A stretch of 64,000 nt of DNA, taken from IMG/VR virus record IMGVR_UViG_3300045988_094266; one strand, given 5' to 3'. Under the pieces are notes generated by a model, which made no database searches, was not told where the DNA came from, and saw only the letters and a list, made by a program, of their open reading frames with translations. Of the stretch, positions 37,196 through 37,270 are shown piece by piece (position 1 is the stretch's first letter; every line of letters begins with the position of its first letter). Position numbers and translations under genes: made by a program. This DNA is from a virus.

Positions 37196-37270
37196 TGGCA
37201 GCGGAGGTCGGATTCGAACCGACTCCCGAGGTTTTAGAGACCCCTGCGCTAACCATTACGCTACTCCGCA
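37196..37270 (-). tRNA. Amber-suppressor tRNA, anticodon CUA (reads UAG); tRNA-Gln-like features (G73, unpaired U1, D-loop TAATGGTTA)
   Basis: Cloverleaf: acceptor gcggag/ctccgc, D gcgt-aatggtta-gcgc, anticodon stem ggggt/acctc with loop C-T-CTA-A-A, variable ggga, T-arm gtcgg-ttcgaat-ccgac, discriminator G, CCA encoded. Anticodon complement TAG on the plus strand at ~37235-37237. Confidence 0.75.

Follow-up and report, generated by a model that had tools for sequence, protein, structure and literature searches.

The DNA analysed here, called the window below, is a 64-kb stretch (64,000 nucleotides) of the IMG/VR virus record IMGVR_UViG_3300045988_094266. ARAGORN found 31 tRNAs and a tmRNA in it, which are all minus-strand genes located from 36.1 to 54.6 kb, and a single one of these tRNAs is able to read UAG. 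This tRNA and its surroundings, in the direction of transcription, are:

38674..38714, minus strand: strong intrinsic-terminator-like hairpin (19 pairs and a T run) at the end of the tail-fibre operon
37708..37736, minus strand: perfect TTGACA-17-TATAAT promoter-like site (12/12 match), ~440 nt upstream of the tRNA
37360..37686, minus strand: 108-aa Cys-rich ORF, TAG-free, between promoter and tRNA
37196..37270, minus strand: the UAG-reading tRNA, 75 nt
36861..37175, minus strand: 104-aa very basic ORF, TAG-free, downstream of the tRNA and syntenic with it in all relatives

The first-pass annotation of this DNA had described the tRNA as a 75-nt cloverleaf with the anticodon CUA, an unpaired U1, the discriminator G73 and an encoded CCA, and all of this was borne out by ARAGORN, Rfam and the sequence itself. 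ARAGORN returned exactly 37196..37270 on the minus strand, with the anticodon cta at position 34, and the Rfam family RF00005 matched 37199..37270 (minus strand) with 60.2 bits (gathering score 29, E=1.6e-10). The cloverleaf is the minimum-free-energy fold of the 75 nt, the folding energy alone being unexceptional (z=-1.06). As read from the sequence, the acceptor stem UGCGGAG/CUCCGCU consists of six pairs and a U1•U72 mismatch, followed by G73 and the CCA encoded in the gene. The D-stem is GCGU/GCGC, the 8-nt D-loop AAUGGUUA contains G18G19, the anticodon stem has 5 bp, the variable region 4 nt, and the T-loop is UUCGAAU. The Rfam score above the gathering threshold, the cloverleaf and the canonical D-loop (GG) and T-loop assign the element to the tRNA class, and the 7-nt anticodon loop (C32 U33 C34 U35 A36 A37 A38), with U33 and a purine at position 37, is that of an amber suppressor.

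ARAGORN labels this tRNA 'Pyl', which is the program's default label for CUA. The bodies of tRNA-Pyl are compact and atypical, with a short D-loop lacking G18G19, a 3-nt variable loop and a long anticodon stem. A pyrrolysine tRNA is thus suggested by the label and the CUA anticodon, but the body is canonical in all respects listed above (G18G19, 8-nt D-loop, UUCGAAU T-loop, 5-bp anticodon stem, 4-nt variable region), neither pylS nor pylBCD is present among the window genes, and TAG aligns with Gln and not with Lys/Pyl (see below). We therefore rejected the tRNA-Pyl class, whose probability we regard as practically negligible.

The hairpin at 38674..38714 separates the upstream tail-fibre operon from the tRNA unit, and the RBS of the 104-aa ORF (AAGGAGG) begins 7 nt past the CCA of the suppressor. 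No Pfam or PHROG family matched the 108-aa ORF, and none matched the 104-aa ORF, for which homologues were found within the same clade only. The TTGACA-17-TATAAT site is invariant in five relatives whose tRNA-proximal intergenic DNA has diverged. Unmodified host RNA polymerase would transcribe the suppressor from 37736..37708 as an ORF-tRNA-ORF polycistronic RNA, from which the tRNA would be cut by host RNase P and 3' processing. The consensus promoter is of the sigma-70 type and suggests that the suppressor is expressed from the start of infection. A search for an HDV-like or theta ribozyme at the tRNA gave no HDV-like family even at E<=10 in Rfam, which may not hold a theta model.

Similar promoter-like sites occur elsewhere in the window. 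Seven near-identical TTGAAA-17-TATAAT sites lie among the tRNA genes (46104..54925, minus strand), and sites matching at least 11 of the 12 positions number 13 on the minus strand versus ~2.3 per strand in shuffled sequence. This promoter set fits a host whose promoter consensus is of the sigma-A type, and not one from the Bacteroidota.

The suppressor gene is identical or nearly so in 20+ independent contigs. Relatives with diverged flanking intergenic DNA retain 72-75 of the 75 nt, and across five aligned relatives the tRNA hardly varies next to 90 nt of heavily diverged upstream sequence. The gene order Ser(UGA) - Sup - Leu(CAA) - Cys is kept in IMG/VR viral contigs, in ENA and Logan assemblies and in JGI metagenomes. 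Four variants of the tRNA exist in total: the form of the window, one with a T-stem pair changed from C:G to G:C, one with an extra U in the D-loop, and one with U1 replaced by C1. The T-stem change is compensatory. The 1:72 mismatch is present in every copy, as U•U in 20+ copies and as C•U in one variant (L013), and no copy with a restored 1:72 pair was found among those compared. This pattern indicates that the suppressor tRNA is under purifying selection. Most of the contigs carrying it originate from the human gut, and the size of several of them (143-149 kb) puts the genome probably at ~148 kb.

Gene calling with TAG as a sense codon yielded 81 genes on the minus strand of the 64-kb window. 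The many in-frame TAGs that the tRNA had been proposed to read are real: there are 46 of them, within 17 of the 81 genes. As terminal stops, TAA is used 58 times, TGA 23 times and TAG never; one end is ambiguous (a tandem TAG-TAA at 35184), and no window gene clearly terminates at TAG. For comparison, 34 of the 146 genes of a standard-code Agate phage end in TAG (bioRxiv 10.1101/2021.08.26.457843). Among the recoded genes, listed here together with the putative holin, are:

3658..4569, minus strand: GIY-YIG homing-endonuclease-like gene, 8 in-frame TAGs
11472..11807, minus strand: putative holin, TAG-free, its start overlapping the lysin stop; by hydropathy, residues ~10-44 are strongly hydrophobic and a second hydrophobic segment is present
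11804..13213, minus strand: endolysin with Phage_lysozyme2 (2e-33) and Amidase_2 domains that span the TAGs, 9 in-frame TAGs
13216..14070, minus strand: NAGPA/SPOR cell-wall enzyme, first gene of the lysis cassette, 2 in-frame TAGs inside the Pfam domain
22916..23365, minus strand: stand-alone YqeY, located with a block of NAD genes, one in-frame TAG spanned by the Pfam domain
35184..36086, minus strand: DUF2726 endonuclease-like gene, 4 in-frame TAGs, ending in TAG-TAA
38721..42912, minus strand: five tail-fibre-like genes with 3, 4, 1, 2 and 5 in-frame TAGs, three of them matching Pfam Mtd_N
56670..57419, minus strand: uracil-DNA glycosylase (UDG), one in-frame TAG

TAGs lie inside Pfam domains in the lysin, NAGPA, GIY-YIG, YqeY and tail-fibre genes, and ThyX, UDG, RNA ligase and YqeY have a single in-frame TAG each. 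Three of the five tail-fibre-like genes keep the C-terminal motif (L/I)(I/N)xNCG past their last TAG. Genes bearing TAG (lysin, tail fibres) are essential and, in many independent assemblies, both conserved and intact, and the endolysin is the main client of the suppressor tRNA. The verdict on recoding is based on this domain-level evidence, which replaced coding density: TAA as sense raises ORF coverage more than TAG as sense, and the density test is indecisive because TAA is the commonest stop. The lineage needs translation table 15, since table 11 splits the lysin, the tail fibres and several enzymes into fragments, and automated pipelines have already translated this clade with code 15.

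The DUF2726 endonuclease-like gene is missing at the same position in a relative (L056), where the DUF2828 gene follows almost directly after tRNA-Cys; the gene is probably a mobile insertion.

Which amino acid is inserted at TAG can be read from homologues. A first alignment of 120 lysin homologues, with Gln at the TAG columns, was discarded as circular, because proteins from recoded relatives had been pre-translated with TAG as Q. At the codon level, CAA or CAG stands opposite five of the nine lysin TAGs in 64%-identical relatives. The nearest lysin homologues from bacterial genomes (Oscillospiraceae and other Clostridia) are without in-frame TAG; in the alignment with such TAG-free homologues, four TAG columns are conserved and contain CAA or CAG in 10 of 11, 10 of 11, 11 of 12 and 13 of 13 sequences, and the remaining five TAGs sit in variable columns. 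Two lysin homologues of known structure, PlyL (PDB 1yb0) and phi29 gp13 (PDB 3csr), have Gln at the TAG-aligned position, and the TAG of the UDG gene aligns with a Gln of Coxiella UDG (PDB 3tr7). In none of the homologues aligned was TGG/Trp found opposite any TAG. Since the codon comparison, the TAG-free homologues and the PDB homologues all agree, the alignments show that TAG corresponds to Gln, as had been proposed from the sequence of the tRNA. The relatives of the lysin are almost all from Oscillospiraceae and other Clostridia, and the host is probably among the Clostridia.

The reading that the TAGs are translated otherwise or mark pseudogenes, the tRNA being a relic or a decoy (e.g. a bait for anticodon nucleases), draws on the RNA repair genes of the window, a repertoire (RNA ligase, RlaP, Thg1-like, PNK-like) suggestive of conflict with host defences that target tRNA:

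17340..19351 and 24961..29730, minus strand: RNA/tRNA repair cluster with RNA ligase, RlaP, three metallophosphatases, a PNK-like AAA_33/KTI12 protein and an RNase_T exonuclease
18497..19351, minus strand: Thg1-like 3'-5' nucleotidyltransferase (Pfam match via the 97%-identical relative L001)

Against a relic or decoy stand the strong conservation of the tRNA with its compensatory change, the intactness of the TAG-bearing lysin and tail-fibre genes in many independent assemblies, and the fact that no other tRNA of the window reads UAG; we consider this reading very improbable. We conclude with high, if not complete, confidence from the combined sequence evidence that 37196..37270 (minus strand) is a functional phage-encoded amber-suppressor elongator tRNA that reads TAG as Gln.

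The RNA ligase gene has 16 CAG and no CAA among its Gln codons, unlike the rest of the window, and this suggests that it was recently acquired.

To characterize the identity of the suppressor, its body was compared with the other tRNAs of the window, above all with these genes:

45286..45437, minus strand: two ordinary tRNA-Gln genes (CUG and UUG), both with A1-U72 and G73
48824..48898, minus strand: tRNA-Trp(CCA), with A1-U72 and G73

The tRNA-Gln(UUG) at 45364..45437, to which the first-pass annotation had likened the suppressor, was returned by ARAGORN at this position. The claim of a Gln-like identity holds for the acceptor stem (xGCGGAx), but the body as a whole is as close to tRNA-Trp(CCA) (65% identity, the closest tRNA of the window) as to tRNA-Gln(UUG) (63%). 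The anticodon arm and the T arm are Trp-like: the anticodon arm differs from that of tRNA-Trp at C35U and at the stem pairs 27:43 and 28:42, the two most distant from the loop, and the T-loop is identical. The bacterial identity set of tRNA-Gln comprises G73, U1-A72, G2-C71, G3-C70, G10, U35, G36, A37 and U38 (PMC9976931). The suppressor has G73, U1, G2-C71, G10, U35 and A37 of this set and deviates at A72 (U72), G3-C70 (C3-G70), U38 (A38) and G36 (A36, which is unavoidable in CUA). From the Trp set of the same source it has G73, G2-C71, G4-C69, G5-C68, A9, C34 and A36. A whole-tRNA comparison with 270+ phage tRNAs did not separate the isotypes, Leu, Trp, Met and Cys all scoring ~0.7. The Gln assignment thus rests on the protein alignments, because the body has about equal numbers of Trp and Gln elements.

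A rival reading takes the suppressor for a derivative of tRNA-Trp, changed from CCA to CUA like su+7 of E. coli, and TAG for a Trp codon. The proximity to tRNA-Trp (nearest tRNA of the window, similar anticodon arm, identical T-loop) and the elements G73, G2-C71, G4-C69, G5-C68 and A9 agree with this, and in PMC10879173 the isotype score is Trp for 19% of the phage suppressor tRNAs. However, the conserved TAG sites are Gln and no TAG is aligned with Trp in any homologue; moreover, C35, a major TrpRS element, has been lost and U35, the key GlnRS element, gained. A Trp origin of the body would still be compatible with Gln charging, and we regard insertion of Trp as highly unlikely.

Insertion of Gln agrees with what is known about charging of amber suppressors. 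Amber derivatives of tRNA-fMet, tRNA-Trp and tRNA-Ser are charged by GlnRS, with U35 and the pairs 1-72 and 3-70 as determinants (PMC9976931). By analogy, a CUA tRNA that combines U35 and G73 with a broken 1:72 pair is expected to be a classic GlnRS substrate, whatever its ancestry. Charging would be carried out by a host enzyme, most likely GlnRS, the alternative being the route via GluRS and the amidotransferase GatCAB; both are possible, because GlnRS is present in only 10 of 28 surveyed Firmicutes (PMC3927822). The charged suppressor would then compete with host RF1 at UAG. No release factor (including RF2), RF1 antagonist or aminoacyl-tRNA synthetase was found among the ORFs of the 64-kb window, and a 'code-change module' of the type described by Borges et al., consisting of suppressor, synthetase and release factor, is not present within it. 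A GGQ-motif scan of IMG/VR found 28 loci, none of them on contigs of this clade, which is a weak negative.

The mismatch at 1:72 is shared within the window by only three tRNAs, the suppressor, the initiator tRNA and the following tRNA-His:

50649..50724, minus strand: tRNA-His with C73 and a U1•C72 mismatch; a G-1 is apparently not encoded

The Thg1-like enzyme (18497..19351) would be the obvious candidate to add G-1 to this tRNA-His. A mismatch at 1:72 is expected to weaken EF-Tu binding, as it does for the initiator tRNA, which counts against the reading as an elongator. U1•C72 or U1•U72 together with G73 and an encoded CCA also occurs in unrelated phage CUA tRNAs of IMG/VR (loci L025/L043, L039, L052 and others), and several IMG/VR contigs have two different CUA tRNAs side by side. 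Mismatch plus G73 was counted in 9 of 37 unique phage suppressors versus ~3 of 186 other tRNAs from the same loci, the acceptor ends having been parsed approximately. We did not find an earlier description of a conserved pyrimidine•pyrimidine 1:72 mismatch with G73.

It is conceivable, if rather unlikely, that this mismatch is an adaptive device which sets the timing of suppressor charging and the enzyme responsible for it. Two versions are possible. In the first, the acceptor end would be pre-opened, so that host GlnRS accepts a tRNA without G36. In the second, the phage Thg1-like enzyme would edit the 5' end, templated by U72, to A1-U72; Thg1-type editing would thereby give the same pair that both phage tRNA-Gln genes have. 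If the latter is true, the activity of the suppressor would be under phage control and could be delayed. The stand-alone YqeY of the phage (22916..23365) could assist in this, since a YqeY domain supports the binding of tRNA-Gln by GatB and by Deinococcus GlnRS. Engineers of suppressor tRNAs may also take an interest in a naturally selected amber suppressor whose 1:72 pair is broken.

The tRNA had further been proposed as the likely switch for translation of the late genes, a proposal that agrees with the published model and is supported only in part. On the one hand, TAG accounts for 9% of the Gln-type codons of the window but is strongly concentrated in the genes for lysis, tail fibres and homing endonucleases: 64 genes are TAG-free, whereas 5000 permutations gave 50.9 on average and 59 at most. 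The lysin uses TAG nine times and CAG once, whereas in the window as a whole CAG (136) is ~3x as frequent as TAG (41). The TAG-rich lysin, tail-fibre and homing-endonuclease proteins would be made only once enough charged suppressor is available, which may delay or gate them, and gating by suppressor accumulation is plausible from this codon distribution. On the other hand, a clean early/late switch is weakened, because the host-type promoter suggests early expression and four early-type genes carry TAG.

We see a real, though lesser, chance that code 15 is constitutive in this phage, i.e. that the suppressor is produced from the onset of infection, that TAG serves as nothing more than a third Gln codon without a timing role, and that faster evolution or a foreign origin of the lysis, tail-fibre and homing-endonuclease genes, rather than regulation, accounts for the clustering of TAG in them. 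The perfect, conserved host-type promoter upstream of the suppressor fits this, as do the single TAGs in ThyX, UDG, RNA ligase and YqeY; the TAG sites of the lysin turn over fast between relatives, which have 1, 4, 6, 9 or 12 of them, and mobile endonucleases are two of the heavily recoded genes. The excess of TAG over CAG in the lysin (9 versus 1) points instead to selection for TAG, as the change from CAA to TAG requires two mutations, and the same bias towards lysis genes, with heavy recoding of homing endonucleases, was found statistically in other recoded phage clades (bioRxiv 10.1101/2021.08.26.457843). For the question whether stop-codon recoding gates lysis, the Gln-inserting suppressor described here adds a further well-documented case, probably from a phage infecting Clostridia, with clear parts: one suppressor behind a consensus promoter, and a 9-TAG lysin beside a TAG-free putative holin.

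Several other elements of the window deserve mention:

20156..24713, minus strand: NAD salvage/synthesis block with NAPRTase, NAD synthase, a phosphoribosyltransferase and an isochorismatase/nicotinamidase
30771..33212 and 33624..35147, minus strand: 813-aa protein with Major Vault Protein domains and 507-aa DUF2828/DUF7788 protein
44725..44809, minus strand: class-II tRNA-Tyr(GUA) with an odd D-arm, found by Rfam only (32.4 bits)
45000..45116, minus strand: tRNA (Rfam, 49.8 bits) whose anticodon arm carries a 55-nt insertion, missed by ARAGORN
47672..47987, minus strand: tmRNA (114.6 bits) with the tag peptide DNDYFENYLAA
54347..54420, minus strand: tRNA called Leu(CAA) by ARAGORN, with a perfect 5-bp anticodon stem (UUUCA/UGAAA) and the 8-nt loop ACUCAAAG

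The tRNA at 54347..54420 has a class-I body with U1-A72 and G73 and no encoded CCA, and is 100% identical in two IMG/VR relatives; anticodon loops of 8 nt are typical of frameshift-suppressor tRNAs. The tRNA at 45000..45116, likewise identical in two relatives, could be an intron-containing tRNA or a tRNA-like element, and all 20 isotypes are covered without it, tRNA-Tyr(GUA) completing the set of 20 amino acids. The 813-aa vault-like protein (MVP_shoulder 8.5e-18, Vault_3, Vault, Band_7) adjoins the 507-aa protein with DUF2828 and DUF7788, an unusual pair in a phage; its matches in the phage collection are the huge phages LR756500, LR756501 and LR756503 only, with ~40% identity.

Megablast of the window against the GenBank phage collection gave no match, and the phage is not a Phassvirus. 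The best protein identity among GenBank phages was ~35% (topoisomerase subunit tested), and by these comparisons the lineage is without a close relative among them. Phassvirus phAss-1 from the human gut (~136 kb) has 36 tRNAs including three tRNA-Sup(CTA) genes; 28% of its ORFs are interrupted by TAG, which is read as Gln, and it has no suppressor-specific synthetase (Babkin et al., PMC10607447). It differs from the window, with its single suppressor gene, in the number of such genes, and shares no detectable DNA similarity with it. The Agate clade (154 ± 27 kb, Firmicutes host) fits the contigs of 143-149 kb and the host predicted here and is a lead only. Two TAG-recoded Agate phages are reported with RF2, which was not seen in this window, and the Agate lineage analysed in detail is TGA-recoded (bioRxiv 10.1101/2021.08.26.457843).

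Two further types of phage suppressor have additional parts. Suppressors associated with theta (HDV-like) ribozymes, which like the tRNA of the window come from code-15 gut phages and give a mixed Gln/Trp isotype signal (Kienbeck et al., PMC10879173), are defined by a minimal HDV-like ribozyme cleaving within ~5 nt of the tRNA 3' end (PMC10879173); in the window no ribozyme was found, and the encoded CCA is followed by the RBS and ATG of the 104-aa ORF. Jade phages combine the suppressor tRNA with an aminoacyl-tRNA synthetase as well as a release factor in one module (Borges et al., bioRxiv 10.1101/2021.08.26.457843).

Among bacterial systems, the E. coli amber suppressors charged by GlnRS, namely supE (tRNA-Gln CUA), su+7 (tRNA-Trp CUA) and CUA derivatives of tRNA-fMet and tRNA-Ser (PMC9976931), share with the phage tRNA the CUA anticodon, U35, G73 and a 1:72 pair that is weak or disrupted, the combination that directs glutaminylation. 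They differ in having G3-C70 where the phage tRNA has C3-G70. Furthermore, they are mutant or engineered host tRNAs that suppress partially, whereas the tRNA of the window occurs naturally, is conserved as a phage gene and serves a set of recoded genes.

The closest parallel is with the TAG-recoded gut phages, in which CUA suppressor tRNAs are known from Lak, crAss-like, Garnet, Amethyst, Agate and other phages (Borges et al., bioRxiv 10.1101/2021.08.26.457843); for crAss-like phages, Peters et al. (PMC9523058) report validation of TAG recoding by metaproteomics. As in the code-15 phages of Borges et al., whose hosts use the standard code, a CUA tRNA is encoded, TAG is read as Gln and no dedicated synthetase is present (here, among the window genes); TAGs are concentrated in structural, lysis and homing-endonuclease genes, and replication genes are mostly free of them. 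The tRNA of the window differs from theirs by its strictly conserved pyrimidine•pyrimidine 1:72 mismatch. Phage suppressor tRNAs and the recoding of TAG to Gln are already well described, and the present case leaves the current understanding unchanged; the window is a clear further example of such a system in a gut phage.
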